DNA of 64,000 nucleotides. Origin: Pseudomonadota bacterium (GTDB lineage Bacteria; Pseudomonadota; Alphaproteobacteria; Rs-D84). The stretch lies in contig JAEXCU010000015.1 in NCBI GenBank assembly GCA_023402015.1, positions 67,879-131,878 on the forward strand, written 5' to 3'. The translations under genes were made by a program, and so were the position numbers. Each line of letters opens with the position of its first letter. Position 1 is the stretch's first letter. This document shows positions 4,447 through 35,702 of this stretch, in pieces. The notes under the pieces are model-generated. The model searched no databases. It worked only from the letters and a program-made list of their open reading frames with translations, and was not told where the DNA came from.

Positions 4447-5175
4447 ATGTCAGAAATATTGGTTGAAAAACGTACTTTACAGGCATATCAATGCGACCGT
4501 TATGGCAATATGCGTCCGCTGATTTTAATGAATGAATTACAGGGCATGGGCGACAAACACGCGGAAAAATTGGGCGTGGGATATGAATATTGCCAATCGC
4601 ACGGAATGGCGTGGGTTGTTACCCATTACCTGGTGGATATTATCGAAATGCCAACCGAACGCGAAGAATTGCAAATAATGACATGGCCGTCATGCCAGGA
4701 TAAATTGCGTGCCACGCGTGATTTTGAAATCCGTGGGGCGGACGACCGTTTGCTGGTACGGGCAACATCCCAGTGGGTTCTGATTGATATGGCGCGTCGT
4801 CGTCCATTGCGTTTGGATGAAAATTTGCCGCGGTGGTTAATAAACGAATGCCGCGCGTGGGACCGAACATTTGATAAATTCCCGGATTTTGCCGCGCAAA
4901 AAACACATACGTTTAAATGCCGGTTTGACGACATTGACGTGAACCAGCATATTAACAATGCCGTTTATGCCGTTTGGGCGACCGAAAGCGTCGGTTATGC
5001 ATTCCGTAATCAGCATCAGTTAAAACGCATAGAATTAAACTTTAAAAAAGAAATCAGTCCCGACACACCGGAAATTCAGATAGACGTTGCAATTGACGGC
5101 AATGTTTCGCATCACAAAATTCGCACCGGCGACACAGAACATGCGTCGGTCGTTTGTTTTTGGGAAAAAATGTAA
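4447..5175 (+). CDS. acyl-ACP thioesterase family protein
   Basis: A double hot-dog layout and N-terminal similarity to FatA/B-type bacterial acyl-ACP thioesterases (YQCDRYGNMRP..., HINNAVY). Confidence 0.65.
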   Translation: MSEILVEKRTLQAYQCDRYGNMRPLILMNELQGMGDKHAEKLGVGYEYCQSHGMAWVVTHYLVDIIEMPTEREELQIMTWPSCQDKLRATRDFEIRGADDRLLVRATSQWVLIDMARRRPLRLDENLPRWLINECRAWDRTFDKFPDFAAQKTHTFKCRFDDIDVNQHINNAVYAVWATESVGYAFRNQHQLKRIELNFKKEISPDTPEIQIDVAIDGNVSHHKIRTGDTEHASVVCFWEKM

Positions 5176-5326
5176 ATTGGGACCGTCCATATGGATGGGG
5201 GGCGGCGGCGATATATTTGAATAAGTATCACTATGGCATTAAACGTGGTGGCTGAACCCCGGCCACCACCGTTTTTAATGGTTTTCTTTTATTGAAAAAT
5301 TTCTTATATTATTATATAATGCCCGT

Positions 5327-5526
5327 GCAGCAACGGATTGTTGCTGTGGGGAATAAGAACCCCTAGAAGTCCGCCTTGAAACAAGGTGAAATAACTCCAA
5401 CTGTCGGTTGGAGGGCGGTGATATATAAAAATAAACCCGCTATAGACTTCTATAGTTCTTATCCTCCAACCACCTGAATTTTCTGGTGGTTATTTTTTTA
5501 AATGTTTAAACCGGGAGAGAGGATAA
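5327..5526 (+). promoter_or_regulatory. Structured 5' leader with intrinsic terminator (copy 1 of a two-member leader family)
   Basis: Promoter TTGAAA 5292-5297, 17-nt spacer, TATAAT 5315-5320. Hairpin 5395-5413. Terminator AACCACC/GGTGGTT 5468-5491 plus a T-run. About 110 nt are colinear with the leader at 33580-33701 on the minus strand. Confidence 0.6.
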
Positions 5527-5793
5527 ATGACAACAAATAAAAAAAATATTCCAGAAGAAATGCAAATCTTAGAAGGTGAACAAGAATTTTACATCAGCCT
5601 GGGCCAGCGTTTGCGCAAATTCCGCGAAATGAATGAAATATCATCTGCCCAAATGGCCGAAATCGCCGGCACAACCGCCGACCAATGGGAAAAATATGAA
5701 ACCGCAGAATTGGCATTCCCGCTGTATCATTTGGTGCCGGTTCTGGAACACTATGGTTTTCCGCCAGAATTAAAATTATGGCAATTTAATTAA
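5527..5793 (+). CDS. small XRE-family helix-turn-helix protein (88 aa)
   Basis: HTH segment LGQRLRKFREMNEISSAQMAEIAGTTADQWEKYE. An SD sequence lies directly upstream. Confidence 0.7.
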   Translation: MTTNKKNIPEEMQILEGEQEFYISLGQRLRKFREMNEISSAQMAEIAGTTADQWEKYETAELAFPLYHLVPVLEHYGFPPELKLWQFN

Positions 5794-5796
5794 AAA

Positions 5797-5818
5797 ACCG
5801 CCAATTGGCGGTTTTTTT
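5797..5818. terminator. Bidirectional terminator ACCGCC-AATT-GGCGGT with flanking A/T runs
   Basis: A stem-loop between the convergent XRE gene and rpmH. Confidence 0.7.
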
Positions 5819-5969
5819 AATTTGCTGCGGTTGCAGCCAATCTTTTACGGCCCGCGGCGCGGCGACGATTTAAAACCTCGCGTCCGCCCTTGGTTGCCAT
5901 ACGTTCACGAAACCCGTGCGTGCGAACACGACGTGTTTTGGACGGTTGATAAGTACGTTTTGTTGCCAT
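5817..5969 (-). CDS. rpmH: 50S ribosomal protein L34
   Basis: My own translation of the minus strand gives [50 protein letters not shown], a clear L34. It is absent from the ORF track because it is under 60 aa. Confidence 0.9.
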
Positions 5970-6144
5970 AACTAAATCCTTTTGTGCGTCTATTTAATCA
6001 TACGTTTTTATAAAACGCAACCTTTTTATTTAGATTTTACCAATCCCAGTTTTTTCATACCTTCCAGCATCAGGTAATATGAAAATAACAGCGAAAATAA
6101 TTTCCAAAATGGTAAAAACATAATTTTATTCCGTTTTTGTTTAA

Positions 6145-6330
6145 TTATCTGGTTTTGTCGTTGTTTTTGGTGCGGATTTTATCAATCCGGTCCATTGCAT
6201 TTAATGTTCGCGTCAGGTGCCATTTCATTATTTTTAATTGGGTCATGCGCAACGGATCGCCCGCGTTGCATTTCATCATATCTTCCACCATTTTAATGGC
6301 ATCAAAAACACTATCTTTTATGGTACCCAT
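6145..6330 (-). CDS. small hypothetical protein (61 aa)
   Basis: ATG start and weak RBS. It sits in the intergenic space between rpmH and gyrA. Confidence 0.3.
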   Translation of the reverse strand: MGTIKDSVFDAIKMVEDMMKCNAGDPLRMTQLKIMKWHLTRTLNAMDRIDKIRTKNNDKTR

Positions 6331-6473
6331 TGTATTGTTTTCTGGTTTGATTAACTGATAATTATATTACCACCAAGTGGCATTTTGTCAATTTATTTTT
6401 TGGGGTTTATGTCTTGACCCGCGGTGCAGAAATTTGCTATTGTTCATATGTTAAAAATAAGGGAAATTTTAGT

Positions 6474-11443: not shown

Positions 11444-12481
11444 TTAATCGCGAATATTTTTCATTTGATTTATAATTTCATTTTCAATTGCATATGAACT
11501 CAGTTCCGTGGCCGATTTGTGATAATCATCAAAATTCTGTTGTATTTCAGTATATGTTTTTTTGTCCAGTTTCTGTATCTGGGGGCCCAATGCGCCGGCG
11601 CGTGGTTTTAAATCATCCAACGCATGATGCATTTCATGTGCAAACATCGCAATCATTCTGTCAAATGTTTTGGTGCCGTTTTTGGCTTCGTTTCTTTTGG
11701 CAAAATCCAGATTCAGGCGAATAATTTTCTGCTCTATTGCATCCGGGTGCGTTTTTGGGGATTTTTTAAATTCGTTTATTACAGATTTTTGTTGTTCTGG
11801 GGACATATCTTTGGGCAGTGTGATTGAATAACCGTTCTGTTTATAGGCGCCGGTTTGATTTGGTGAACTCGGCTTAAAATCGGCTGTTTCCCAATTTTTT
11901 ACCGCCGCGACATTTATGGATTGTGGGTGCAGGTTATATTCATCGCAAAAATCACGGGCCAGTGCCTGAAACAATGCGTTGTACGCGGCAATCTCGTCCC
12001 CGGGCTTGGCGTTTTTAACTTTCGCCACCAGGTCATTATGGTTATTCAGACGACGAAACCAATCATATGCGAATTGTTTCGCCAAATTATATCTGTTTAC
12101 GGTGGCAACGTTAAAGCGATTACGTATTTCATCGTCTTTTGTGGGATCTTTGGACATTTGACTTAACTTTAAATCAAATGTGTTAAATTCACCCTGAATG
12201 TTGTTTAAATCATTACTGACCGCCAATAAAAACAGCGACATGTTCTTGGGTCTGTATTTGTTCAATTTTATTGCGGATTCATATTGCGTTATTAATTCAT
12301 CCGGTTTGTGGCCATGCGATATAAAACCGCGTGTCATCGGGTGAAACTGTCCTGATATTTTATTTTTCGTTTCTGGGTCCGTCGCCGCGATATATCGGTT
12401 CAGTAAATTTATATCATTTTGCATGATCTCTATTTCAATATCGCGCGCGGCAATTTGAAATTTATTCGCCGTGTCTGTCAT
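11444..12481 (-). CDS. hypothetical protein with an HExxH zinc-metallopeptidase-like motif
   Basis: The motif FAHEMHHALDD lies near the C-terminus. There is no signal peptide and no other recognisable domain. Confidence 0.6.
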   Translation of the reverse strand: MTDTANKFQIAARDIEIEIMQNDINLLNRYIAATDPETKNKISGQFHPMTRGFISHGHKPDELITQYESAIKLNKYRPKNMSLFLLAVSNDLNNIQGEFNTFDLKLSQMSKDPTKDDEIRNRFNVATVNRYNLAKQFAYDWFRRLNNHNDLVAKVKNAKPGDEIAAYNALFQALARDFCDEYNLHPQSINVAAVKNWETADFKPSSPNQTGAYKQNGYSITLPKDMSPEQQKSVINEFKKSPKTHPDAIEQKIIRLNLDFAKRNEAKNGTKTFDRMIAMFAHEMHHALDDLKPRAGALGPQIQKLDKKTYTEIQQNFDDYHKSATELSSYAIENEIINQMKNIRD

Positions 12482-12608
12482 GTGAAGTATTATAACATAA
12501 CGCTGCGTAATTATAAACAGAAAAGGACGGTCGGGCGACTTGGTTTTATTTGTGTTTTGTATGATAAAAAGTTAAAAATAAATCCCGGGGTTTCAGCCCG
12601 GGAAATAT

Positions 12609-13469
12609 TTATCTGCCAGATTTTTCTTTTATAAACATTTGCGTGGCGTCAAATGATTTTGATACCAATCCCGCAAAGACTTTTTTCTGGTCTGCCACAC
12701 TCAGATTTGGATTAAATGCACCTTTTTTAATTAGTACCTGGATGGTTTCGGCGGTGGCATTTAAAACCTTGGCATTATTTTCAATGAACAAGTTTAATGC
12801 GTCGCTGTCTTTTTTGTTCTTTTCCGGGTCATAAGAAACACTGTATAGGCGATTTTTTGCATCCGCCGCCAATTTAGCATTGGGCAATTTTTTCAATTTT
12901 TCCGGGGCGTATTTGGGCAATATTTCTTTGCGGTAAATATCAACAACAGATGTGCCCCAATCAAAGTTATCGGGGATATATAATTTTTCACCCGGTTTAA
13001 CGTTTTTTAATGCCTGTATGAATTCTTGCAGGGTGTAATTTGCCAATTCGGTGCCCGCATTTGCAATATCTGTACCTGTGTTATATTTTTTTGGCGAAAG
13101 CATTGCCGGCGTTTTATTTGTCTTCCATGCCAGGTCAAACCAACGATTATTTAATTTTAAGAAATTCGGCAAAGCATTCGGATTTTTTAATGCCAGCAAC
13201 AAAATTACATATTTATCGCTTTCTATGACGGCATTTAATTGCTTGTCCGGGGACAGTTTTAAGAAGTTGGCGGCGTATTGGTTTAAATCCATAACGGTTC
13301 CATTGACATCGTTAACGACGCCAATCGGATGCGTCCATGTTCCGAATTCTGCGCCTTTGTTATCCTGGGCTTGGCTTTTTAATGGCAACAAAGACAGTGC
13401 CGATATACCAAAAACGGTCAGGGCCTTTTTGATGTTGCCACTGGCTGCATTAAATGTTGATGATTTCAT
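12609..13469 (-). CDS. hypothetical secreted protein (286 aa from MKSSTF)
   Basis: Signal-peptide-like N-terminus ALTVFGISALSLLPLKSQAQ, with ATG at 13469. Confidence 0.6.
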   Translation of the reverse strand: MKSSTFNAASGNIKKALTVFGISALSLLPLKSQAQDNKGAEFGTWTHPIGVVNDVNGTVMDLNQYAANFLKLSPDKQLNAVIESDKYVILLLALKNPNALPNFLKLNNRWFDLAWKTNKTPAMLSPKKYNTGTDIANAGTELANYTLQEFIQALKNVKPGEKLYIPDNFDWGTSVVDIYRKEILPKYAPEKLKKLPNAKLAADAKNRLYSVSYDPEKNKKDSDALNLFIENNAKVLNATAETIQVLIKKGAFNPNLSVADQKKVFAGLVSKSFDATQMFIKEKSGR

Positions 13470-13689
13470 AATGAACCCCTTTCTTATAATTGTATCACTA
13501 AAAACCACGAAAGCAAAAGGTCGTTGGGAATATATTATGAAACAGTCCATTGGATTTTATTTAACTTAATCTTGAGAAAAACAAGATTAATCGTTGACAA
13601 TTTTAAAAAAGTGCAAAAGTTATCAAAAAATATGGCCTGCAAAATAGAAAAATAAAATAAATTTAACTGGCCAAGTTTTTGTCTTTATA

Positions 13690-14040
13690 TGGTTTGGGCG
13701 CACACAGGGGTGTGGGGATGCCCCCCACTAGTGTTTTGGAACAAAACACGTACAAAACGTTAATAACGTTTTGCAGTACAAATACGCGGTCATTTGTACT
13801 ATCTGGCGTACGCACCAAATAAAAAAAGCCCCCTTGTGGGCGTTTTTATTTGGTTTGGGCGCACGGATTCCCACGGACTTTGTCCTGCGGGGCATTCGTA
13901 TGATGTTTGCTGCACTGGGTTTGCAAACATCAACTCATTGTCAAACCAAACGACATTCGTCGTGTGGCCTTATCCTTGTCTCGCGCCCAAAAATAAAAAC
14001 ACCGCAAGGGTGTTTTGATTTTTGGTTGTGCACGGAGCGC
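13690..14040. repeat. Array of three decayed copies of the tRNA-Gln 3' end
   Basis: Compared with the tRNA 3' end TGGTTGGGGCGCACGGATTC (24582-24601): copy 13690-13703 is TGGTTTGGGCGCAC; copy 13851-13870 is TGGTTTGGGCGCACGGATTC (19/20); copy 14023-14036 is TGGTTGTGCACGGA. The second and third copies adjoin a terminator-like hairpin. An inverted core, CTCGCGCCCAAA, lies at 13980-13991. Confidence 0.75.
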
Positions 14041-14360
14041 CATACGGTATTTGCATTCAATTTGTGATTTTGCCGAAGCACGATTTAGACCATTTAACAG
14101 GGATTAGCAGGGATTTTTCGCAAAAACACCCACCGAAATACTAACATGATACAATTTGTGCTAGAATTCATGTCCAGTTTTCCGCGGTTTTTTGTGTGTC
14201 TAAAAATTCCCTAAAAAAACTAACAGGAAATTCGATTTTAGTATCAGGGAAAACTGCAAAATAACAGCGAAAAAGCCGCATAAAAACAGGATAACGCACT
14301 TTCTGGTAATATCTGGGAAAATTTGAGAATAAAAGTAATTCCAGCTTTCCCAGATTTATT

Positions 14361-15314
14361 CTATAAAAGATCATTTAGCAAGTTCATACATTTAATTTTC
14401 TGCTGCATGTTTGCCCTGCCATAGACATTTAACGTAAAGGACACGTTCTTATGTCCCAGAATTTCGGACAGAGATTTAATATCAAAGTCCGGTATTTCAA
14501 TAGCACGCACGGCAAATGTGTGCCTTATTTCATGAAACTTGACAGTACGCAGATTATGCTTTTTTAAGAATCTCGCAAAGAACTGACGATATGTCCTAGG
14601 CTCCGTTGGCTTGGTCTTTCCGGTTAAAAAATACTGATTAGGGTTATCTGAATAGTACTTTTTAATGATATTTATCAGCAAAGACGGCACCGGAATCGTT
14701 CGTGCCGAACAGGCGGTCTTGGGTGCGCCAATATGAACATACGAGGTTCCTTTAGTTTTATCATAAATTCGCTGAACCGTGCGTTGGATAGTGATAGTTT
14801 TATCAGTCAGAGATATATCACGCACCTGCAGACCACACAATTCACCAATGCGAATGCCGGTAAACAATGCGACCAAGACACCAGCTGTGCGGCGGTTCAT
14901 TTTCATATAAATACATTGAATAAGAGCCAATTCTTCATCCTTAGACAAAGTAATGACGCGCTTGATTGAAAAGTCCTTAGGATATTCAATCAAATCCCAA
15001 TTCAACATAGGGATAATTTTTTCTTTATACGCATAAAGCATACATAGCCGCAGGACTAAAATAATATCACGAATGGTTTTGATGGTAAGACCGCCGGTTT
15101 TATCCAATCGCCCCTCATTATGTAGCAGAGTAATATACGCCTGAATATCAGATTCAGTAATATTGCCAATCTTTTGCTTGCCAAAGTGAGGTATCAGATG
15201 ATTTTCTGCAATCAGCATAAAGCTGGCATAAGTCGACGGTGTAATCATAGGGCTTTTTTGGCTAAGCCATACATTGATCAAGTTTTTGAAGTGACTATTT
15301 GATGTTAGTGTCAT
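14361..15314 (-). CDS. tyrosine recombinase (phage-integrase family), likely the hsdS invertase
   Basis: Catalytic signature HEIRHTFAVRA ... LGHKNVSFTLNVYGRA. RBS AAGGAG. It lies directly beside the inverted hsdS cassettes. Confidence 0.85.
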   Translation of the reverse strand: MTLTSNSHFKNLINVWLSQKSPMITPSTYASFMLIAENHLIPHFGKQKIGNITESDIQAYITLLHNEGRLDKTGGLTIKTIRDIILVLRLCMLYAYKEKIIPMLNWDLIEYPKDFSIKRVITLSKDEELALIQCIYMKMNRRTAGVLVALFTGIRIGELCGLQVRDISLTDKTITIQRTVQRIYDKTKGTSYVHIGAPKTACSARTIPVPSLLINIIKKYYSDNPNQYFLTGKTKPTEPRTYRQFFARFLKKHNLRTVKFHEIRHTFAVRAIEIPDFDIKSLSEILGHKNVSFTLNVYGRANMQQKIKCMNLLNDLL

Positions 15315-15366
15315 TGTACATACTCCTTTTTAAGTACAGATGTATGTTGAGAAGAAAAAACACTAA

Positions 15367-16491
15367 AAACAAACCTCTAGTATTGGTCTTGAACCGCCCC
15401 TCCGTTTCCCAGAGTTTGAGGGAGAATATACAAAATTTAAGCTAGGTGACATATGCATTAAGGTTCAACGCAAAAATCAAGATTCTGATGCGCCTATCAT
15501 GATGTTATCTGCAGGAACAGGATTCATAATGCAATCAGAAAAGTATTCCAGAGATAATGCTGGGCAAAGCCTTGCAAAATACACTATCTTGAAGCGTACT
15601 GAACTGGCCTACAATCACGGGGCTTCAAAGCAAAAACCATTTGGATGCTGCTATATGCTAACAGAAGAAAAAGCGAGGGTTCCATATGTATACCACTGCT
15701 TTTCGATCCAAAATAATACCCCACAATATATAGCCATATTACTTAATAATCAACGTATAGAAAGACAACTGAAAAAGCTAGTTTCTTCAAGTGTTAGAAT
15801 GGACGGTTTATTGAATATTTCTTTTGATGATTATATGACTGTTGACCTATATTTACCCGACATTTCTGAACAACAAAAGATTGCGGACTTCCTGTCCCTG
15901 GTTGATGAAAGAATTGAAAAACAGCGGCAGCTGGTCGATGCCCTGAAGAAGTATAAAAGAGGAGCTTTATCAAGAGTTTTTAACGATGTTTTGAAAACCG
16001 TAAAATTATCGGATATTTCTAATTTTATTTCTTCCGTAAGGACATTGTCTACAATATTAAATAGCAATAAGGGAATTTATCCTGTTTACGATGCGGCTGG
16101 TATAGCTGGATATATTGACCATTATGATATTGATTCTGACTATATAACAATAGTTAAAGATGGATCGGGAGTGGGCCGCTTGCAAAAATGTGATAAAAAA
16201 TCTAGTTTTATTGGAACTCTGGGAGCATTGGTTGCGAAAAATTGTACTACAGATTTTTTATATGCAGTTCTGCAAACAATAAATTTTTCTAAATTTGTTA
16301 CAGGAATGGCTATTCCTCATATTTATTACAGGGACTATAAAAGCACTCTACTTCCATTTCCTAGTGAAGAAAAGCGACATTTTATATCGCAATTATTTAA
16401 AGAATTTGATATTCACATAGAAAATGAAACCCAAAAATTAAACAATATACTGACATATAAACAAGGATTGCTCCAGCAGATGTTTATATAA
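15367..16491 (+). CDS. hsdS: start-less (silent) hsdS cassette with two target-recognition domains
   Basis: The frame is open from just after TAA 15364-15366, with no start codon before the conserved SSIGLE..LRFPEF segment. It has the central repeat EQQKIADFLSLVDERIEKQRQLVDALKKYKRG and the C-terminal KQGLLQQMFI. Confidence 0.75.
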   Translation, partial: KQTSSIGLEPPLRFPEFEGEYTKFKLGDICIKVQRKNQDSDAPIMMLSAGTGFIMQSEKYSRDNAGQSLAKYTILKRTELAYNHGASKQKPFGCCYMLTEEKARVPYVYHCFSIQNNTPQYIAILLNNQRIERQLKKLVSSSVRMDGLLNISFDDYMTVDLYLPDISEQQKIADFLSLVDERIEKQRQLVDALKKYKRGALSRVFNDVLKTVKLSDISNFISSVRTLSTILNSNKGIYPVYDAAGIAGYIDHYDIDSDYITIVKDGSGVGRLQKCDKKSSFIGTLGALVAKNCTTDFLYAVLQTINFSKFVTGMAIPHIYYRDYKSTLLPFPSEEKRHFISQLFKEFDIHIENETQKLNNILTYKQGLLQQMFI

Positions 16492-17671
16492 ACATTTTTT
16501 GTAAAAGTCCTTGTTTTTGAGTATTCAATCTCTCTAATACATCATTTTCTGTTGTTATTTTTTTATCTAAAATAGCAAATATTTTTGCAATGTTATCTTG
16601 CATCTCTTTGGTCGGTAATTTTATGAGCATATCACTTAACGTGGAAAGAACAATATATGGAGTATTACCGGCTTTTTTTTCAGCATCTATTCGTGGGTGC
16701 AAATTTGCTTGCAAATAGTAATAAATATACATTATATTTTCTTGAAAACTATCCAATACATAGGTTCTTTGATAAGCATTAAATTTTCCACAATAATGGT
16801 GGATGTAACCAACATTAGCTCCGTTACCAGAAATTAGTAATGCATCCGTGTCAAATGCATAAGTATCTATTTCAAAATATTCTCTGGCACATGTATAAAA
16901 ACGATATTTCCCTCCCACAACCATTGCATTTGCGTCTAATTTACCTGTTGTGATATTACAAATTTCACCTAATGTTAATGTGTTATTTGAAGATATTTTA
17001 TTAAAAAAGGCGGATAACAACCCTCTTTTATACTTCTTTAAGCTCTCAACCAACTGTCGCTGTTTTTCGATGCGCTGGTCAATAAGAGAGAGGAAATTAG
17101 CAATTTTTTGTTGTTCTTCTATGTTTGGACTTAAAAAATGAGTGGTGGCAAAAAAATCATCTGTTGGTACATTAAGTAGACCATGATTTCTAGCTCCTTC
17201 AGCTGAAATAAAGTAGATTTGACGATACCATTTTAATGAATCAAAATAATGTCTTATATAATCGGAGCAATGTTTTTTTAAAGAAAAACAAATGTAGAGA
17301 GTCGACAATGCTCCCATTTCGTATCGTTCTAATCTTTTTATTGATCCAAAATCATAACCATTCGAATAACTTTTATTGTATGCAAATTCTCCATTTTTTA
17401 GAAGATAATATCCAGACATATCTTTACTAGATACTTTTTTATTAAAGAATGTAACTTGGTCAACTAATCCATCTTTAGATGATATTGTTAAAGGCAAATC
17501 AGTTTGATTTTTATTATTTTTTCTCGTTACTCTTAACGTTAAATCAGACAGTTTTTCTGTAATCCATGGATCACTATACGACGAAAATCGTAGTGCAGGA
17601 ACTTTACCTTCAAGACCAATACTAGAGGATACATTTTTTGATAAAATTTGGCTTTTTGCATTATTTGTCAT
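16484..17671 (-). CDS. hsdS: Type I restriction-modification specificity subunit HsdS (expressed copy)
   Basis: Layout TRD1, central conserved repeat (EQQKIANFLSLIDQRIEKQRQLVESLKKYKRG), TRD2, KQGLLQKMFI. It lies 3 nt downstream of hsdM. Confidence 0.9.
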   Translation of the reverse strand: MTNNAKSQILSKNVSSSIGLEGKVPALRFSSYSDPWITEKLSDLTLRVTRKNNKNQTDLPLTISSKDGLVDQVTFFNKKVSSKDMSGYYLLKNGEFAYNKSYSNGYDFGSIKRLERYEMGALSTLYICFSLKKHCSDYIRHYFDSLKWYRQIYFISAEGARNHGLLNVPTDDFFATTHFLSPNIEEQQKIANFLSLIDQRIEKQRQLVESLKKYKRGLLSAFFNKISSNNTLTLGEICNITTGKLDANAMVVGGKYRFYTCAREYFEIDTYAFDTDALLISGNGANVGYIHHYCGKFNAYQRTYVLDSFQENIMYIYYYLQANLHPRIDAEKKAGNTPYIVLSTLSDMLIKLPTKEMQDNIAKIFAILDKKITTENDVLERLNTQKQGLLQKMFI

Positions 17672-17674
17672 GGC

Positions 17675-19249
17675 TTAGTTCTCCATGTCAAAAGGGAAAT
17701 CTAACCCCAGTTCATCAAAGTATGGCTTCAATTTCGCGTTGATTTCCTTGATATCTGAATTTAGCTTTTTGATTTCTGCAGAAGTAGCGTTCAAATCGAT
17801 AGGCTCTTCCTCCTCAAATGTGTCCACGTAGCGGGGAATATTCAGGTTAAAACCATTTTCAGCAATCTCTACCATTGTCGCAACATGTGCATACTTTTCG
17901 ACATCCTGGCGTTTGACATAAGTATCCACAATTTTATCAATGTCGCAGTCACGCAGGATATTTTGGTTCTTGCCTGGTTCAAATTCCTTGGACGCGTCAA
18001 TAAACAAAATATTGTCTTTGTTACCGTTACGGTTCTTTTTCAGCACCAATACGCAGACAGGGATCCCCGTTCCAAAGAACAAATTGGCAGGCAGGCCAAT
18101 AACGGCATCCAACAGGTTCAATTTTTCGATCAAGTATTTACGAATAGTTTCTTCTGCGGCACCGCGGAAAAGCACCCCATGGGGCAGCAATACAGCAATG
18201 CGACCATCTTCGTCCATATGGTGAACCATATGTTGCACAAACGCAAAATCTGCCTTGCTTTTTGGGGCAAGTTTGCCATATTCGCTGAAACGTTCGTCTT
18301 CTAGGAACTTATCATCAGCAGACCAGTTTGCAGAGTATGGCGGGTTTGCAACTTGGATTCGATACTGTTTGTCATTAGCAAGTTCTGTAAAGAAGTCATG
18401 TTCCAAGGTGTCGCCATTGTATATTTCAAAATTACGGTACGGAATACCGCGCAAAATCATATTCATGCGAGCCAGATTATAGGTGGTAGAAGTCAATTCT
18501 TGGCCATAATAATTACGCACATTTACATACTTTTTCAGCCGTAACAGCAATGAGCCAGAACCACAAGTCGGGTCGGCAGCCGCTTTAACATCGGTCAATC
18601 CATAACACGCCAAGCGGCACAATAATTCAGCCGGTCCCGATGGCGTATAAAACTCTCCGGCTTTTTTGCCGGCAGTGGCGGCAAACTGACCAATCAGATA
18701 TTCGTACGCATTACCAAGAACATCAATCTTTGTATCTTCTACACTAAAGTCAATCTCATCCAAAGCTGCGATTATCTTGGCCATAACTGCAGAACGGTCT
18801 TTGACAGTATGCCCCAGTTTTGTGGAATCCAACTGCATATCAGAGAACAGATCTTCAAAATCGTCTTGCGATGCATTGCCGATCGTGGATTCCATTAAGC
18901 TGTTGATGGCAGTCTGCAAGAATTCAATGTCAAACGAACGGTTTTCAACCATTGCAACTAAATTGCGAAATAGATATTGAGGCTCAATAACAAATCCCAA
19001 ATCGTTTAATGCTTCTTCTATTATTGCCACCTTGTACTCAGGATTTTCCCAGGCCTGTTCATAAGACATCGCATCGTCTTTTAGAATCTTGGTCATATAT
19101 TTTTCCGTGCGGTCAGATAGATAATAATAGAAAATCATGCCAAGAATATAATTCTTGAATTCATAGGCTTCCATATTACCCCGCAGGGCATTTGCCATAT
19201 TCCACAATTTATTACACAGTGTTTTCTGATGCGCTTGAATATCGTCCAT
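17675..19249 (-). CDS. hsdM: Type I R-M N6-adenine DNA methyltransferase subunit HsdM
   Basis: An HsdM N-terminal domain, the AdoMet motif DPTCGSGSLL, and the catalytic motif NPPYS. Confidence 0.9.
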   Translation of the reverse strand: MDDIQAHQKTLCNKLWNMANALRGNMEAYEFKNYILGMIFYYYLSDRTEKYMTKILKDDAMSYEQAWENPEYKVAIIEEALNDLGFVIEPQYLFRNLVAMVENRSFDIEFLQTAINSLMESTIGNASQDDFEDLFSDMQLDSTKLGHTVKDRSAVMAKIIAALDEIDFSVEDTKIDVLGNAYEYLIGQFAATAGKKAGEFYTPSGPAELLCRLACYGLTDVKAAADPTCGSGSLLLRLKKYVNVRNYYGQELTSTTYNLARMNMILRGIPYRNFEIYNGDTLEHDFFTELANDKQYRIQVANPPYSANWSADDKFLEDERFSEYGKLAPKSKADFAFVQHMVHHMDEDGRIAVLLPHGVLFRGAAEETIRKYLIEKLNLLDAVIGLPANLFFGTGIPVCVLVLKKNRNGNKDNILFIDASKEFEPGKNQNILRDCDIDKIVDTYVKRQDVEKYAHVATMVEIAENGFNLNIPRYVDTFEEEEPIDLNATSAEIKKLNSDIKEINAKLKPYFDELGLDFPFDMEN

Positions 19250-19265
19250 TTCCTGAATCCTTTAA

Positions 19266-22064
<2,799 letters not shown>

Positions 22065-30018: not shown

Positions 30019-33000
30019 ATGCTGAAATTCTTCGTAAGCAGACCCATCACTACGCTGATGTTTGTATTGTTTTGGGTTGTTTTGGGATTGGTGTCTTTCC
30101 CAAAAATGAACATTGAACGTACGCCGTCATTGGACTTTCCCATGGTTACGGCCACATTTGTTTATCCGGGCGCGGAACCTGCGGAAATAGAATCCCAGGT
30201 TATTAAAAAGGCCGAAGATGCAATATCCGAGGTTGCCGGATTAAAGAAAATAACATCCCAGGCATTCGAGAACGGCGGGTATGTTATGGCTGAATTCAAC
30301 CTGGGCGTGAATGTTAACGACAAAGCGTCCGAGGTTAAAACCAAAATTGACGCGTTGGCATCGGAATTTCCAGATGATTTAAAACAACCTGTGGTTGAAA
30401 AATTGAATCCATTACAAGAATCTGTGGTGGACATCGTTTTGCGTGGTGCAGATGCGCGTGATTTAGAAGAATATGTTGATAACACATTGGCCACAAAAAT
30501 CACCGCGATAAATGGTGTTGCCAGTGTATCTGTTTTCGGTGGTCGCGAACGCGCGGTTCGCATTCAAATGGACCCGGATCAAATGGCGGCCCGTGGCGTT
30601 ACAATTATGGATATTGTATCTGCGCTGGGGAATAAAAACCTGAACGTGCCTGGCGGTAAAATTGAAAGTGGAACCGCATCGTCCAACGTGCGCTTTATTG
30701 GTGAATTTGCCATGGTTGATGAAATTGAAAACCTGCAAATCGTTACCATGGAAGGCCAAAAGTTCAAAGTATCAGATGTTGCCACCGTGGTGGATGCCGC
30801 GCGCGATATTGAAACCGGTGCACGTTATAACGGCCAAGACGTCGTGGTTGCATCCGTGGTCAAGGCATCTGACGGTAATGCAATTAAAATTTCCAACGCA
30901 TTGCGCGAAAAATTGCCTGATTTCCAGGCGGACATGCAGGCCCGTTTCCCAAATGCAGAAATGCAGATTGTGTCCGATTCATCCATTTCAATTGCTGATG
31001 AAACATACAGCACAATTTGGGGTATCGTACTGGGGATTATATTCACGATTTTGGTTTTGTTGGCGTTTACACGCAACTGGCGTTCCACAATTATTGCGGG
31101 TGCGGTTATTCCGGCGTCCTTGATTGCGGGATTCTTCTTTATGGATGCCAATGGATTTACAATCAATGCGATGACGTTGTTGGCGTATTCATCTGCGCTG
31201 GGGACGTTGGTGTCTAATGCGATTATTCTGATTGAGTCTGCATTACAGGAAATGCACAAAGGTAAAAATCCAGAAAACGCCGCAATTGACGGTACCAAGA
31301 AAGTCGCGGTTTCCGTTTTGGCGGGCGTTGGAACAAACGTTGTTGTGTTCTTGCCGTTGGCATTTATGGGCGGAATTGCGGGTCAATTCATGTCCCAGTT
31401 TGGTATGACGGTTGTGTATTTAACATTGTTATCATTGATGTTCTCTTTCACGTTGGCACCAATGATGATTGCAAAATTCCTGCGTCTGACCGCGCCGGTT
31501 GATAAAAAATCACCGGTTGCAAATGATGCACCGGTGCCGGTTGAAAAGACGCCGTTGCGTCAATGGTTTGATTTTCAATTTCGTCGTCCGGGATTGGTTG
31601 TTGGTGGTGCATTCGTGATTTTAATTGCATCTGCCATGTTGATGAAATTCGTCGGTAATGAATTTACACCGTCAACCGATACAAATGAAATCACCATAAC
31701 GGCGCGCGCGCCAATGGGTGCAACATTTGAAAAATCGCAACATATTGCCGAACAAATAGAAGATGTTTTGGCCCAATTCCCAGATGTCAAGGCGACGACT
31801 GTGAAAATCGGTGAACGCGGTTTGCAAAATATTACAGTAAAACTGGAATTGCAAGAATTGGGCCCGCGCAAGATTTCCGACAAACAATTGGCACGTGATA
31901 TTCTGCCCCGTTTGGCGGAAATTCCCGATACAGAATTTCAAATCAAGGCCGGTGCCGGAATGTCTTCGTCAATTTCATCGGATATGGTGTTAAATATTTA
32001 CGGTGAAGATGACGCAAAACGCGGGGCGTATGCAGACCAGATTCTGAAAATGATAAATGAAATTCCAGAAGTGCAAACGGCCGTCTTTGCGGTATTGCCA
32101 CCCAACAATGAAATTCAATTTGTGGCGGACCAGGCGAAAATGAATTTCTGGGGAGTGTCCAATGCATATGCTGGCGCGGCATTGCGCGCGGCCCTGTATG
32201 GCAACGACGATTACAAATACAAAGAACGCGGCGAAGAATATCCAATTATTGTTGAATTTGCCAAACCGTTTAAAAATGGTGCATTGTTTGACAATGTGTA
32301 TGTAAATTCACAAAAGGGTATGGTTTCAGTATCTGAATTGGGTGAAATCAAACGCCTGCCTGCGACGCCAAACATTAATCGTTTGGATAAAAACAGAATT
32401 ACCGAAATTGACATTAATATCGGTAAATCCACAATGGGGCCTGTTCAGCAAAAAATTCAGGCCGGTCTGGATGAAATGGAATGGGAAATGGGATATTATG
32501 CCGAATTTGGTGGAATGTCTGAAACCCAGGATGAAACAACCGGTGAAATCGGCCAGGCGTTCTTGCTGGCAACAATTCTGACGTTCATGTTGTTGGCGGC
32601 GATATTGAATTCACTGGTTCATCCGTTTACCATTGCAACGTCCATTATCACCAGTTTTGCCGGCGTGTTCATCATGCTGTTCCTGTCGGGGGCATCAATG
32701 AACGTTGGGGCCATGTTGGCGTTCGTTATGTTGGTCGGATTGGTGGTTAACAATAACATTTTGGTGTTGGAACCAACGATTAAGCGAATATCCGAAGGTG
32801 CGGTCCCACGCGTTGCATTGTGGACAGAATTAACAGATAAAAAGAACATGGTGTTAATGACATCTATCGCGGTTGTAACGGGTATGTTGCCCCAGTTATG
32901 GTCAACCGACGGTATGAAGGTCGCCATGGCGGCGGTTATGATTGGTGGTATGTTGGCATCCCTGGTGTGGACATTTACATTAACACCCGCGCTGTTCTTC

Positions 33001-33084
33001 TTATTGGAAGGTTTGCGCGAACGGGTCAAAGCAAAACGCCGCGTTCATAAAATCGCACGCAAAACCAAGAAAGTGAAAAAATAA
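30019..33084 (+). CDS. RND-family efflux transporter permease (AcrB-like)
   Basis: A 1021-aa protein with a 12-TM layout, two large periplasmic loops and an AcrB-type N-terminus. Confidence 0.9.
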   Translation: MLKFFVSRPITTLMFVLFWVVLGLVSFPKMNIERTPSLDFPMVTATFVYPGAEPAEIESQVIKKAEDAISEVAGLKKITSQAFENGGYVMAEFNLGVNVNDKASEVKTKIDALASEFPDDLKQPVVEKLNPLQESVVDIVLRGADARDLEEYVDNTLATKITAINGVASVSVFGGRERAVRIQMDPDQMAARGVTIMDIVSALGNKNLNVPGGKIESGTASSNVRFIGEFAMVDEIENLQIVTMEGQKFKVSDVATVVDAARDIETGARYNGQDVVVASVVKASDGNAIKISNALREKLPDFQADMQARFPNAEMQIVSDSSISIADETYSTIWGIVLGIIFTILVLLAFTRNWRSTIIAGAVIPASLIAGFFFMDANGFTINAMTLLAYSSALGTLVSNAIILIESALQEMHKGKNPENAAIDGTKKVAVSVLAGVGTNVVVFLPLAFMGGIAGQFMSQFGMTVVYLTLLSLMFSFTLAPMMIAKFLRLTAPVDKKSPVANDAPVPVEKTPLRQWFDFQFRRPGLVVGGAFVILIASAMLMKFVGNEFTPSTDTNEITITARAPMGATFEKSQHIAEQIEDVLAQFPDVKATTVKIGERGLQNITVKLELQELGPRKISDKQLARDILPRLAEIPDTEFQIKAGAGMSSSISSDMVLNIYGEDDAKRGAYADQILKMINEIPEVQTAVFAVLPPNNEIQFVADQAKMNFWGVSNAYAGAALRAALYGNDDYKYKERGEEYPIIVEFAKPFKNGALFDNVYVNSQKGMVSVSELGEIKRLPATPNINRLDKNRITEIDINIGKSTMGPVQQKIQAGLDEMEWEMGYYAEFGGMSETQDETTGEIGQAFLLATILTFMLLAAILNSLVHPFTIATSIITSFAGVFIMLFLSGASMNVGAMLAFVMLVGLVVNNNILVLEPTIKRISEGAVPRVALWTELTDKKNMVLMTSIAVVTGMLPQLWSTDGMKVAMAAVMIGGMLASLVWTFTLTPALFFLLEGLRERVKAKRRVHKIARKTKKVKK

Positions 33085-33088
33085 AGAA

Positions 33089-33106
33089 ATGGGGCCACGG
33101 CCCCAT
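33089..33106. terminator. Bidirectional terminator ATGGGGC-CACG-GCCCCAT
   Basis: A perfect 7-bp stem between convergent genes, flanked by A/T runs. Confidence 0.7.
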
Positions 33107-33108
33107 TT

Positions 33109-33579
33109 TTAATTGCTGTAATAACAGTTGGACGTGTATGTAAAACTGCCCGACGAATCTGAACCGGTGGTACCGACGGCCAGATAACATTCTGTTATTG
33201 ATGTTGCGCCACTGGTCGCGGTCGTGCCATAAACGCCGCCTGACGATGGACATCGCGTGCATGTTTTATCAAGACGTGTGGGGACCCCGTAATAACCGAC
33301 CGCGCATTTGTACGATATTATGTTTGCGCATTCTGCATATGCAGTATTGTTTTCACATTTTGTGGATTTTTTCTTGGTATTAATTTCTATTACACCGCCA
33401 GACAGTGTGGTTTCGGTTGTGCCACTGCAATTACAAATACTGCTGTTGGTGCAACTGCTGTCATATGTCGGGGATGTACCACCCACCAATGCCGGACAAA
33501 CATTTCCGCAACAATTAAACGCCGCAAATGCATGGTTGCCAAAACCGCATATTGCGGTGGCGATTATAATTTTCTTCAT
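33109..33579 (-). CDS. Cys-rich secreted protein (156 aa)
   Basis: Signal peptide MKKIIIATAICGFGNHAFA and 16 Cys in the mature part. It contains the motif CAVGYYG...CTRCPSSGGVYG...GATSITECY. The SD is GGAGG. Confidence 0.7.
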   Translation of the reverse strand: MKKIIIATAICGFGNHAFAAFNCCGNVCPALVGGTSPTYDSSCTNSSICNCSGTTETTLSGGVIEINTKKKSTKCENNTAYAECANIISYKCAVGYYGVPTRLDKTCTRCPSSGGVYGTTATSGATSITECYLAVGTTGSDSSGSFTYTSNCYYSN

Positions 33580-33775
33580 TTCTAACCTCCGTTTTTTTCA
33601 TAAAGAAAACCACCAGAAATTCAGGTGGTTGGAGGTTAGCGACTATCTTGTAAATAGTGGTGGTATTTGGTATTTCCACACCCTCCAACCAGTGGTTGGA
33701 GATTAAAAAATGCACCACATAACGCCGCGGATGCCTGCGTACAAGAATGGGTCGCTAAACCCCGTTATCAGAATA
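33580..33775 (-). promoter_or_regulatory. Structured 5' leader with intrinsic terminator (copy 2 of the leader family)
   Basis: All elements read on the minus strand. Candidate promoter TTGCAC, 17 nt, TATGAT. Hairpin 33683-33701. Small hairpin 33642-33658. Terminator AACCACC/GGTGGTT at 33608-33630. Anti-SD 33631-38 pairs with SD 33583-90. Confidence 0.6.
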
Positions 33776-33878
33776 CCTGACAACATTTTTATCATAACAA
33801 TATAAAATTTGCGGTGCAAGCAAAAGGTTGCTATAATGCATGCGTGAATAAATGCTTAACATAAAAAGGGTTTATAAT

Positions 33879-34481
33879 ATGTTAGAAAAATCAGATATTG
33901 TCGTTTTTGATTTTGACGGAACTTTGTCCGCCGGCGATTCAAATGTGGAATTTGCAAAATATTGTTTTAAACATTCAATTCGGCCATGGTTTTATTTACC
34001 ATTAATGGGGGTTGCGGGTATTGCACGTTTATTTAAGCCGGCCGGCGTTTGGTGGCGTGAAAATATTCGTCGTTTTCTGACCGCGGACATGGTGAATAAA
34101 TTCGCGCCCGATTTTATAAAACAACACCGGCGTGAACGTTTTGGCTGGTCCAAAGAACAGGTCGCGGCCGAACGCGCGGCGGGTCGCCGTGTTATATTAA
34201 TATCGGCCAGTCCGAATTACCTGTTGGAACCATTGGTGCGCGATATAAAATTTGATGCCGTGTTGTGTTCACAAATGGATGCCACGCGTCCATGGAAATA
34301 TAAATTCCTGTGTTGGGGTGAAAACAAAGTTCGCGCCATGGATGAATGGGCGAAAAAGAACAGAATTATTCCGCGTGTTGTGCGTTCTTATTCTGATTCT
34401 AAATCCGATATGCCGTTAATGGAAATCGCATCAGAGCAGGTTTGGGTTGATCGCAAAACGGGGTTAAGAAAACAGCCCTAG
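33879..34481 (+). CDS. HAD-IB family hydrolase
   Basis: Motif I is VVFDFDGTL and the SDSKSD motif is present. ATG 33879 has an AAAGGG RBS. The alternative ATG 33852 would be almost leaderless. Confidence 0.75.
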   Translation: MLEKSDIVVFDFDGTLSAGDSNVEFAKYCFKHSIRPWFYLPLMGVAGIARLFKPAGVWWRENIRRFLTADMVNKFAPDFIKQHRRERFGWSKEQVAAERAAGRRVILISASPNYLLEPLVRDIKFDAVLCSQMDATRPWKYKFLCWGENKVRAMDEWAKKNRIIPRVVRSYSDSKSDMPLMEIASEQVWVDRKTGLRKQP

Positions 34482-34514
34482 TGCAATCTGAACCGCGTGG
34501 TGTATAATAACCGC

Positions 34515-34766
34515 ATGGTTATAACAGATGTGATATATGATTTGACCGTCGGCGTTTTGGGTGCGGTTTTGGGCGCACTGATAATGTTGATGTTTGGACG
34601 TAAAAAGACCAAACGTCTGTCCAATGAAATTGTGTTAAGTCGCAAAGATTTGGAAAATCTGCGCCTGGAAAACAACCATTTGATTGAAACGATAAAAGAC
34701 CGTGAAAATCAAATTTTGGATTTACAGAAAAAAATTCTGAATAAAAAAGCAAAAACGGGGAAATAA
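34515..34766 (+). CDS. small membrane-anchored coiled-coil protein (83 aa)
   Basis: One TM helix followed by the heptad-like LENLRLENNHLIETIKDRENQILDLQKKIL. Confidence 0.45.
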   Translation: MVITDVIYDLTVGVLGAVLGALIMLMFGRKKTKRLSNEIVLSRKDLENLRLENNHLIETIKDRENQILDLQKKILNKKAKTGK

Positions 34767-34782
34767 AATTCCCCGTTTTTTA
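34755..34782. terminator. Bidirectional terminator ACGGGG-AAATAAAATT-CCCCGT
   Basis: A stem with flanking A and T runs, overlapping both stop codons. Confidence 0.65.
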
Positions 34783-35661
34783 TTGGTCTTCGCCGAAATC
34801 CATATTACGCAGTGATGTTGCGCGTGGATTAATTTTATCTATGGATGTTTGCAAATCTTTGATATCTGTCGCCGCCAGGTTAAAGTGTTGTTGCACTTTG
34901 CCCGCACGGTCGGATAGGCGTGATAAATCCGTCAGCAATAAATCCAATTCCCGTTTAATCTTGGTGGCGACGCGTTTGATTTTTATATCGGACAGCACTG
35001 CGCGTATCGTGTTTAATGTTGCCCATAATGTGGACGGGGAAACAATAAATACTTTGCGTCGTGCGGCATAATCCACGGTTGCGCCAAATTCACGATGCAG
35101 CATTTCAAATATTGATTCGGATGCAATAAACATCATTGCCGATTCCGCGGTTGTGCCCGGAATAATATATTTTTCTGCAATTGCATCAATATGTTTGCGC
35201 ACGTCCAGTTCAAACTGTTTGCGCGCCATACCGTCATCGGGTGCGGCCTGCATGCGGTTAAAACTTTCCAGTGGGAATTTGCTGTCAATTACCATGTCGC
35301 CCGGCGGATATGGCAGGCGGATTACACAATCCGGTCGTACGCCCGTGTTTAAAACGCACTGAAATGCGAATGTTTCCGGCGGCATGATATCCGAAACCAA
35401 ATCTTCCAGTTGGCGTTCGCCAAATGTTCCGCGCGCCTGTTTATTGCCCATCAGGATGTTCTTAAAGTTTGCAATATCGCCACTGATGTTTTTCAATTCG
35501 TTGGCATTTTGCGACAATGCCCCCAGACGTTCCGCCAAACGTTCACGCAGGCGTGCATTATCTTCGCGCAGGGCCGAAATATCCACCGTTGGCCGCCGCA
35601 TTAATAATGCCAGCAACAATGCAATAATTATAAACAGCAATACAAAAATATAAGTTGTCAT
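34780..35661 (-). CDS. rmuC: DNA recombination protein RmuC (short form)
   Basis: An N-terminal TM helix and coiled coil, then the RmuC nuclease-like core (PDCVIRLP...VIDSKFPLESF...FIASESIF...VSPSTLWATL). Confidence 0.8.
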   Translation of the reverse strand: MTTYIFVLLFIIIALLLALLMRRPTVDISALREDNARLRERLAERLGALSQNANELKNISGDIANFKNILMGNKQARGTFGERQLEDLVSDIMPPETFAFQCVLNTGVRPDCVIRLPYPPGDMVIDSKFPLESFNRMQAAPDDGMARKQFELDVRKHIDAIAEKYIIPGTTAESAMMFIASESIFEMLHREFGATVDYAARRKVFIVSPSTLWATLNTIRAVLSDIKIKRVATKIKRELDLLLTDLSRLSDRAGKVQQHFNLAATDIKDLQTSIDKINPRATSLRNMDFGEDQ

Positions 35662-35702
35662 TTCCCAATCCTTTGATAAAATCATTATAAAAGGATTTAT
35701 AG

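Follow-up and report, generated by a model that had tools for sequence, protein, structure and literature searches.

What does a long, structured RNA do at the head of a gene for a Cys-rich protein with a signal-peptide-like N-terminal segment, and why should the same RNA stand before a second, unlinked gene? The question is raised by a 64,000-nt stretch of DNA from an alphaproteobacterium of the Rs-D84 lineage (GenBank assembly GCA_023402015.1, contig JAEXCU010000015.1, positions 67,879 to 131,878 of the forward strand), which is called the window hereafter. A preliminary description had flagged positions 33,580 to 33,775, read on the minus strand, as copy 2 of a structured leader with a terminator and no assigned family, and had proposed that two unlinked genes carry the same switch. 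The motifs that it quoted lie where it had placed them, with the other copy at 5348-5471, and its proposals are borne out here by a family of over 180 instances that covary heavily. The key switch, which had not been spelled out, is that GGUUGGAGG pairs either with CUCCAACC, in a hairpin termed P4, or with a distal block CCUCCAACC, in an antiterminator (AT). Copy 2 is probably a cis-acting transcription-attenuation leader that belongs to a lineage-specific RNA family.

A pattern made from two conserved blocks found at least 119 loci in species-representative genomes, often several in one metagenome-assembled genome (MAG), and a search with a covariance model (CM) added 63 copies from metagenome contigs. 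The family-wide counts given below (114 to 123 units or instances) rest on the matches listed among species-representative genomes, the loci (L-numbers) were examined as stretches of up to 15 kb, and the anatomy was derived from 122 aligned instances. MAFFT and RNAalifold alone misaligned the variable P2 and P3 regions and gave a partial structure, hence anchor-based parsing and the CM were used instead. The CM was built from 13 seed sequences and matched 110 copies in the genome loci; it included the pseudoknot (PK), P2, P4 and P5, which biases its alignments towards these helices, while S1, the alternative hairpin HP and the AT were not part of it. Two CM alignments were used, A5 of the genome copies and A6 of the 63 metagenome copies. 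Against ascertainment bias, metagenomes were also scanned with a pattern consisting only of the P5 loop and the 5′ arm of HP, which gave 47 candidate elements. In the window, the CM derived from other genomes scored copy 2 at 71.6 bits (33627-33763, minus strand) and copy 1 at 117.8 bits, the next best match being at 15 bits. The 19-mer CCTCCAACCACCTGAATTT and a 21-nt hairpin pattern are both confined to the two leaders in the window, shuffled versions of which average 0.00 and 0.02 matches, and both leaders are far more stable than their shuffles (z = -5.1 and -6.6).

Two conformations emerge from the alignments. In State A, consisting of S1, PK, P2, P4 and P5, 96.2% of the cells of A5 are paired, with a covariation of 0.63 compared with 0.17 in shuffled and at most 0.08 in slid controls; the corresponding values in A6 are 94.8%, 0.66, 0.18 and at most 0.10. 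The S1 hairpin (GGGG/CCYC) covaries locally (pair 2-18: GC56/GU27/AU22), with the variants GAGG/CCUC, CAGG/CCUG, AUGG/CCAU and GGAU/AUCC, and because the 5′ strand of the PK sits in the loop of this locally covarying hairpin, the arrangement is that of an H-type pseudoknot. The pairing of GGGG with the distal CCUC, which appears in minimum free energy (MFE) folds, was set aside as the main pairing since the local S1 partner covaries; it may occur as an alternate pairing. The PK helix has 7-8 bp of the form U-NNNN-AC / GU-NNNN-A and its 3′ strand abuts the distal block. Its two strands, PKa and PKb, are perfectly complementary in 121 of the 122 instances, in dozens of different sequences (UUAGCGAC/GUCGCUAA in copy 2, AUAAGAAC/GUUCUUAU in copy 1), and the helix is 98.7% paired with all 7 pairs covarying. 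P2 has a mean length of 7.1 bp, compared with 4.2 bp in mismatched controls; it occurs in 96 distinct sequences (UCUUGUA/UACAAGA in copy 2, UAGAAGUC/GACUUCUA in copy 1), and every one of its pairs covaries. About 15 short-form members lack P3. P4 is 97-100% paired family-wide and in variant alleles changes together with the distal block.

P5 is a 5-bp stem from which one C bulges, and its A-rich loop, GAAUAUAUUGAAUAA, is conserved. Its pairs covary (e.g., GC52/UA24/CG16), and several loop positions are at least 90% conserved in a sample that was not selected on that loop; the A-rich loop, the bulged C and a linker make up the conserved unpaired nucleotides of the element. Six loci (L023, L029, L075, L083, L101 and L118) carry an extra G+C-rich hairpin, P5b, inside the conserved GAAUA...AAUAA loop. 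Because P5b is inserted between them, the A-rich segments are the two strands of an internal loop, which is likely to be a tertiary-contact or ligand site. The 5′-terminal hairpin P0 also covaries family-wide in RNAalifold (e.g., UA54/CG33/AU16). In A5, every pair of PK, P2 and P5 has compensatory changes and G-U pairs are frequent, which argues that the structure acts at the RNA level and on this strand. The first 75 nt or so of the two leaders, held in the preliminary description to be unrelated, turn out to be structurally homologous and supply P0, S1 with PKa, the 5′ strand of P2 and P3.

State B consists of S1, AT, P5 and HP, with 93.8% of cells paired in A5 (covariation 0.28 compared with 0.12 shuffled and at most 0.05 slid) and 94.0% in A6 (0.35 compared with 0.14 shuffled). 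The AT is a perfect 9-bp helix of GGUUGGAGG with CCUCCAACC that overlaps the 5′ arm of the terminator, and in A6, a sample drawn without reference to the AT sequence, it is paired to 98.7% and four of its pairs covary. HP is a 4-bp mini-helix that flanks the 3′ strand of P2 with 0-1 nt on each side, the gap between this strand and the 3′ arm of HP being 0 nt in about 90% of the members. Its arms are CUAU/AUAG (69), CAAU/AUUG (22), CUAC/GUAG (3) or CUAA/UUAG (2), and pair 221-241 of A6 is UA31/AU24. Since a strand paired in P2 cannot also close into a zero-linker hairpin loop, HP and P2 belong to different conformations. The second small hairpin of the earlier account (ACUAU...AUAGU) consequently lies outside the terminator-state fold and is part of the alternative antiterminator state, exclusive with P2. 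With the AT imposed as a constraint, ViennaRNA independently predicts both the P5 and the HP hairpin within it.

Natural alleles of the block bear on the choice between P4 and the AT. The AT-specific pair G33682-C33635 covaries from GC to UA in 4 genome copies and in 5-6 metagenome copies. Concerted changes of the block also occur in eight divergent genome copies that the exact pattern had not picked up: four combine GGUUGGAGU with ACUCCAACC, a change of G-C to U-A in a pair exclusive to the long-range helix, two have CUCCUGA(C) / GUCAGGAGG / CCUCCUGACC and one has GCCUUCUGC / GCAGGAGGC / CCUCCUGCC. At least five internally consistent alleles occur among the 47 metagenome candidates, in which the P4 5′ arm follows the P4 3′ arm and the distal block. 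Three-way covariation of the triple block is seen in the alleles AACC, UGACC, UGCC and AGCC, next to the AT-only change of G-C to U-A. Given as P4 3′ arm and distal block, the majority allele is GGUUGGAGG with CCUCCAACC, followed by GGUUGGAGU with ACUCCAACC (5), GGUCAGGAGG with CCUCCUGACC (4, plus one G-U variant), GGCAGGAGG with CCUCCUGCC (4) and GGCUGGAGG with CCUCCAGCC (1). These concerted alleles, together with the covariation of the AT, lead to the conclusion that the P4 3′ arm alternates between the P4 5′ arm and the distal block. A GGAGG/CCUCC core is retained in all alleles, which fits the distal CCUCC being in addition an anti-Shine-Dalgarno (anti-SD) sequence and the P4 3′ arm an SD mimic.

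The switch stands between a promoter and a gene, each unit being transcribed from a sigma-70 promoter of its own. The -10 box matches TATAAT at five or more of six positions in 110 of 114 units, 27-28 nt before GGGG, and the TTG of the -35 box is conserved. A promoter scan of the window had overlooked the promoter of copy 2 because of its weak -35 box; with this promoter, the RNA extends from about 33785 to the start codon (to 33580, minus strand) and is larger than the element originally flagged. Terminators are found family-wide, as a perfect stem of 5-9 bp in 112 of 114 units, of which 107 have at least 5 U among 8 nt. The stem begins at the AACC of the invariant block in 86 and its pairs covary (GC59/AU57). 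In copy 2, the intrinsic terminator is placed between promoter and start codon. A co-oriented open reading frame (ORF) follows the unit in 113 of 123 instances, with its start codon usually 40-57 nt past the distal block, a spacing which identifies the element as a genuine 5′ leader. The features of both copies are collected in Table 1.

Table 1. Positions in the window of copy 2, the gene behind it, and copy 1 (coordinates on the minus strand may be given in reading direction)
Feature	Position	Strand	Sequence or detail	Basis
Promoter of copy 2	33791..33819	-	-35 TTGCAC 33819-33814, 17-nt spacer, extended -10 TGnTATGAT 33799-33791	read from sequence
P0, 5′-terminal hairpin	33764..33784	-	GUUGUCAG / CUGAUAAC; at or just past the transcription start	MFE fold
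S1 hairpin	33749..33763	-	GGGG 33763-33760 pairs with CCC 33751-33749; loop contains PKa UUAGCGAC (33758-33751), the pseudoknot 5′ strand	
P2, 5′ strand	33740..33746	-	UCUUGUA	CM alignment
P3 and linker	33702..33739	-	variable/optional hairpin 33739-33711, A/U-rich linker 33710-33702; length highly variable family-wide	
P4, anti-antiterminator hairpin	33683..33701	-	CUCCAACC 33701-33694, loop ACU, GGUUGGAG 33690-33683	
AT, 5′ strand	33682..33690	-	GGUUGGAGG, the P4 3′ arm plus G33682; SD mimic; perfect 9-bp complement of 33635-33627	
P5	33657..33681	-	stem with bulged C and A-rich internal/terminal loop GAAAUACCAAAUA (family consensus in text)	
HP, alternative hairpin of the putative ON state	33642..33658	-	ACUAU-UUACAAG-AUAGU; loop is the P2 3′ strand UACAAGA 33652-33646	
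PKb, pseudoknot 3′ strand	33636..33643	-	GUCGCUAA, immediately 5′ of the distal block	
Distal block, AT 3′ strand	33627..33635	-	CCUCCAACC; CCUCC is the anti-SD, AACC the base of the terminator 5′ arm	
Intrinsic terminator	33601..33630	-	AACCACC-UGAAUUUCU-GGUGGUU (33630-33608), then U tract UUUUCUUUAU	sequence and MFE fold
Hairpin 1 as DNA	33701-33681	-	CTCCAACC-ACT-GGTTGGAGGG	read from sequence
Hairpin 2 as DNA	33658-33642	-	ACTATTTACAAGATAGT	read from sequence
Distal block as DNA	33635-33627	-	CCTCCAACC	read from sequence
SD region as DNA	33590-33582	-	GGAGGTTAG, complementary over 9 bp to CTAACCTCC at 33639-33631	read from sequence
SD and start codon of regulated gene	33577..33590	-	GGAGG 33590-33586, ATG 33579-33577	read from sequence
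Regulated gene of copy 2	33109..33579	-	156-aa protein, signal-peptide-like N-terminal segment, 14 Cys	
Copy 1 of the element	5292..5526	+	precedes 88-aa HTH_31 gene 5527-5793	CM
Parts of copy 1	5292-5492	+	promoter TTGAAA-17-TATAAT 5292-5320; P0 5327-5347; sensor core 5348-5471; terminator 5468-5492	

In the mechanism proposed here, one sequence logic is used in three copies, namely the P4 5′ arm CUCCAACC, the SD-mimicking P4 3′ arm GGUUGGAGG and the distal block CCUCCAACC. State A, in which the S1 loop pairs with the segment just 5′ of the distal block to form the H-type pseudoknot and P2 closes a three- or four-way junction of P4, P5 and, where present, P3, would be the OFF state. The distal block would be left free to build the terminator, and the SD of any transcript that reads through could be masked by CCUCC. 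In State B, which would be the ON state, P4, P2 and the pseudoknot are open and the 9-bp GGUUGGAGG:CCUCCAACC antiterminator encloses P5 and HP, blocking the terminator and sequestering the anti-SD. The trigger would be an effector acting in the course of transcription, either against State A or in favour of State B. Cis attenuation, with a secondary anti-SD effect alongside it, would be gated by the pseudoknotted junction domain.

Several points weigh against this mechanism. Termination and read-through are both deduced from the sequence. By nearest-neighbour models, implemented in tools that cannot evaluate the pseudoknot, State A is favoured over the antiterminator state by about 15-19 kcal/mol (MFE of -72.7 for State A compared with -53.6 kcal/mol with the AT forced in copy 2, and -71.8 compared with -56.1 kcal/mol in copy 1), and P4 is stable, local and made before the distal block. 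Given this difference in stability, termination would be the default and read-through would need a trigger, and because the local P4 hairpin forms before the distal block, State B would require an effector or special folding kinetics; its route is unexplained without an additional factor. The strongest conservation lies in the switching helices and not in junction nucleotides, and the regulated genes are non-metabolic, both of which are atypical for metabolite riboswitches. Furthermore, about 10% of the metagenome copies stand in tandem arrays without an ORF behind them, which hints at a role of its own for the terminated RNA.

Within the attenuation model, the nature of the effector can be narrowed to a few candidates. 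For a true riboswitch, in which the pseudoknotted junction or the three-way junction of AT, P5 and HP would be the aptamer and a small molecule or second messenger would decide the fold, the chances appear somewhat below even. The complex core of about 125 nt, with its pseudoknot, multi-helix junction, optional P3 and P5b and conserved A-rich internal loop, is typical of aptamers, conserved unpaired nucleotides are present and the family is multi-copy. In Clostridia, cyclic di-GMP (c-di-GMP) riboswitches govern regulons with surface or adhesin-like proteins and regulators, which the adhesin-like, secreted and regulatory genes found here resemble. However, the gene context suggests no ligand, as none of the 113 cargo genes is concerned with biosynthesis or transport. 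The expression platform is not modular but interwoven with the sensor (the AT 5′ strand is P4 itself), State A is very stable already without ligand, and no Rfam class matches. A protein or RNA factor acting in trans, which would bind the nascent leader (e.g., at the A-rich linker and CUCCAACC, or at the P5 loop) and block P4, P2 and PK, is a more doubtful candidate. An active opener would be the simplest route to State B given a very stable OFF default in which P4 forms first, the repeated block is conserved beyond the needs of pairing, and several protein-controlled antitermination systems likewise govern surface proteins and regulators. On the other hand, the conservation of the block is also explained by three-way pairing and SD mimicry, known protein-binding leaders are usually simpler, and no candidate factor was found: GGUUGGAG, which is complementary to the block, has no further occurrence in the 64 kb of the window, and in a search for a trans partner GGTTGGAG was confined to the leaders in the window and absent from its three tRNAs. 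A physical or other signal is improbable.

The remaining explanations dispense with transcription attenuation by an effector. Each unit has its own promoter and terminator, complete tandem units without ORFs between them exist (L155, L160, L212 and L174), and the CCUCC core is present in all alleles, as if the element were a stand-alone gene for a small RNA (sRNA) of about 190 nt whose exposed CCUCC anti-SD seed acts in trans, its place upstream of genes being secondary. Multi-copy anti-SD sRNAs are found in Alphaproteobacteria (alpha-r14, also 'cuckoo' or CcsR, with CCUCCUCCC motifs) and in Listeria (LhrC1-5), and the likeness extends to C/U-rich anti-SD motifs, own promoters and terminators, paralogues or tandem arrays, and links to surface-protein genes. 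Unlike these, the leader has a co-oriented ORF immediately behind it about 90% of the time (113 of 123 genomic instances, at a tight distance), its motif is CCUCCAACC, mostly paired in a hairpin (one of its two C-rich blocks is in P4), and it has no Rfam match. The AT covaries with the base of the terminator that it overlaps, which makes sense only for read-through control, and one array unit is decaying (broken PK), consistent with orphaned duplicates. As the sole function, an sRNA gene is accordingly improbable, while a secondary trans role of the terminated RNA may exist beside the cis role.

Control of translation alone, for instance by an RNA thermometer in which the anti-SD/SD helix would be the active part and the stem-loop a structural insert, is very improbable. 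The preliminary description had nested the terminator inside an 8-bp anti-SD/SD helix. In copy 2 this helix is real and has 9 bp, GGAGGUUAG (33590-33582) being able to pair with CUAACCUCC (33639-33631), in copy 1 UUAUCCUC pairs with GAGGAUAA, and the CCUCC core is invariant. However, the extended helix is specific to the copy and the family keeps only a generic CCUCC:SD pairing: over 105 leaders, the anti-SD region is as complementary to the SD regions of other leaders (4.92 bp) as to that of its own leader (5.03 bp). The stem-loop moreover carries a conserved U tract like those of intrinsic terminators, and the covariation of the AT would go unexplained. Hardly any credence is left for a DNA-level element (recombination or invertible-promoter inverted repeats), a mobile cassette resembling a miniature inverted-repeat transposable element, or classic leader-peptide attenuation; in their favour are three copies of an 8-9-mer in inverted and direct orientation, cargo that differs at syntenic sites, cassettes that duplicate in tandem, and a 1:2 / 2:3 / 3:4 helix logic like that of trp-type attenuators. 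No transposase or terminal repeats were seen, and inverted repeats acting as DNA are ruled out by strand-specific G-U pairs and compensatory changes in PK, P2, P5 and HP. A leader peptide was rejected on the grounds that an ORF with SD and ATG reaches the P4 5′ arm in only 7 of 116 leaders and that the stretch preceding P4 varies and is missing from short forms.

With attenuation retained as the preferred explanation, the leader can be set beside known systems. It shares with the four-segment attenuators (trp, his and pyr; PyrR RF00515) a series of exclusive helices, the anti-antiterminator 1:2, antiterminator 2:3 and terminator 3:4, but it lacks a conserved leader peptide and PyrR-, TRAP- or ANTAR-like motifs, and its 1:2 helix lies inside a pseudoknotted junction. 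The class I and II c-di-GMP riboswitches (RF01051 and RF01786) are similar in having a promoter-proximal complex leader, a terminator with an exclusive antiterminator, many copies per genome and a regulon of surface or adhesin-like proteins and regulators. They differ in that the leader has no Rfam match at E <= 10, that its AT 5′ strand is an invariant hairpin arm inside the sensor, that SD/anti-SD mimicry is repeated three times and that no nucleotide-signalling genes were seen in context; the GEMM-I and class II models matched nothing in the window, both leaders and 12 further loci. As in T-box leaders (RF00230), a large multi-helix leader takes a terminator/antiterminator decision in a multi-copy regulon under one type of effector. 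In contrast to these, it has no T-box sequence, specifier loop or NCCA-binding bulge, its AT is a perfect 9-bp helix without bulge, its cargo does not consist of aminoacyl-tRNA or amino-acid genes and its lineage is alphaproteobacterial; RF00230 matched neither leader at E <= 10. Finally, in the H-type pseudoknot riboswitches (SAM-II, preQ1-II and fluoride) a hairpin loop likewise pairs with a downstream strand that adjoins the expression platform and controls SD or terminator, but these are about 50-80 nt long with a short loop 3, whereas loop 3 of the leader is a multi-helix junction of about 110 nt, and there is no sequence similarity.

A search of the window with the 4227 covariance models of Rfam 15 at gathering threshold returned 3 tRNAs only. 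For both leaders, matches at E <= 10 were at chance level (the best at 19 bits compared with a gathering score of 70), and 12 further loci with other members of the family gave tRNAs only. No description of the motif was found in the literature, in which the coverage of subscription journals was incomplete. The leader is a previously undescribed, strongly conserved RNA family of about 190 nt, specific to the lineage of Enterousia / Rs-D84. The underlying principle, a terminator with antiterminator and anti-antiterminator, is a classical one; novelty lies in the fold of the sensor, the SD-mimic block in its three copies, the organisation of promoter and leader as a cassette, the regulon and the lineage of the host.

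Among the matches listed, nearly all genomes with the leader are MAGs from gut or rumen that carry the label Candidatus Enterousia, uncultured Alphaproteobacteria or 'Rickettsiales'. The window itself can be placed in this lineage, as its GyrA shares 90% identity with the GyrA of OZ007020.1, a complete MAG of 958 kb. Enterousia belongs to the order Rs-D84, has genomes of 0.75-1.0 Mb without tricarboxylic acid cycle, respiration or standard transporters, and has never been cultured (PMC12306168). Unlike every other match listed, the family member L029 (CAZJGX010000002.1) comes from a bin named 'uncultured Muribaculaceae' (Bacteroidota); its contig is probably alphaproteobacterial and was placed in the wrong bin.

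The 113 cargo proteins fall mainly into two kinds. About 40 have a helix-turn-helix (HTH) domain of the XRE type (Pfam matches HTH_31 24, HTH_3 15 and HTH_19 15), with BLAST clusters of 26 and 13 members, and 52 carry a signal peptide by a crude test, proteins with signal peptide or repeats numbering about 50. Ten match the Listeria-Bacteroides repeat and 4 the Cys-rich Ephrin_rec_like family; DNA methylases (2) and EamA (1) were also found, while no metabolic operons, nor genes tied to the synthesis, transport or use of a single metabolite, occur among the 113. The 156-aa protein behind copy 2 has no Pfam match, but in L004 and L062 the leader is likewise followed by homologues with 33-40% identity, and related cargo matches Ephrin_rec_like and Flg_new. 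Seven other loci (L016, L018, L041, L050, L084, L086 and L002) have small signal-peptide proteins of 51-80 aa behind the leader, which form one cluster without a family assignment and share the motif ...A(D)IAS(T)xYV...(T)ANQTMAG.

The preliminary description had suggested that orthologues lacking the element in related genomes would speak against it; relatives carry the leader at syntenic positions and before homologous genes, so its proposal is not refuted. In L064, a leader and a small HTH gene lie upstream of gyrA, as they do at copy 1 (window 4447-6414). In L072, the leader directly follows an acyl-ACP thioesterase gene but its cargo is a secreted protein, and L092 shares the AcrB/HAD/RmuC neighbourhood of copy 2 (window 30019-35685) with the cassette of leader and cargo differently placed and oriented. 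The leader is thus conserved and the cargo fluid, the cassettes behaving like variable islands. Arrays of two to four complete units, with a period of about 200-230 nt and no ORFs between them, occur at L155:120-1030 (four units), L160:629-984, L212:2244-2573 and L174:202-523. In L155, an ORF follows the last unit alone, and the PK helix of unit 2 is decayed. Such arrays suggest either cassette duplication or a stand-alone, sRNA-like role.

Two copies in 64 kb of a genome of about 0.9 Mb, together with several copies per MAG, point to what is probably a large regulon and not the small one first envisaged. Because one promoter-bearing leader design stands before numerous genes for small regulators and for proteins that are secreted, Cys-rich or adhesin-like, it probably constitutes a main global regulatory layer that times the surface and secreted repertoire. 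More tentatively, the leader could be a new riboswitch class or another effector-sensing RNA through which one signal, possibly a nucleotide second messenger or a cue from host or partner, would govern the greater part of the secreted and surface proteome and many XRE-type regulators in gut symbionts of about 0.8-1 Mb, the terminated leaders of about 190 nt perhaps acting also in trans as anti-SD sRNAs. As both conformations and the three-way helix relation are supported by natural covariation alone, the switch model is directly testable. The identity of the effector would reveal what these dependent symbionts sense and could add a riboswitch or antitermination class, and the CM can be used to annotate the regulon in gut and rumen MAGs.

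Further observations concern the surroundings of the two copies. The distance from hairpin 1 to CCTCCAACC is 45 nt in copy 2 and 47 nt in copy 1, as had been noted before. Two ORFs called mechanically over the leader of copy 2, of 67 aa (33515-33718, minus strand) and 132 aa (33308-33706, plus strand), are almost certainly spurious, the region being explained by RNA structure and not conserved as coding. Strong terminator-like hairpins lie at 5245-5269, at the end of the upstream thioesterase gene and just before the promoter of copy 1, and at 33087-33108, at the end of the Cys-rich cargo gene, so that each unit of leader and cargo appears to be transcriptionally insulated. Elsewhere in the window, the stretch 12000-20000 has a GC content of 0.36-0.39, compared with about 0.44-0.46 in the remainder, and holds several ORFs of 300-900 aa; it may be an acquired or accessory region.

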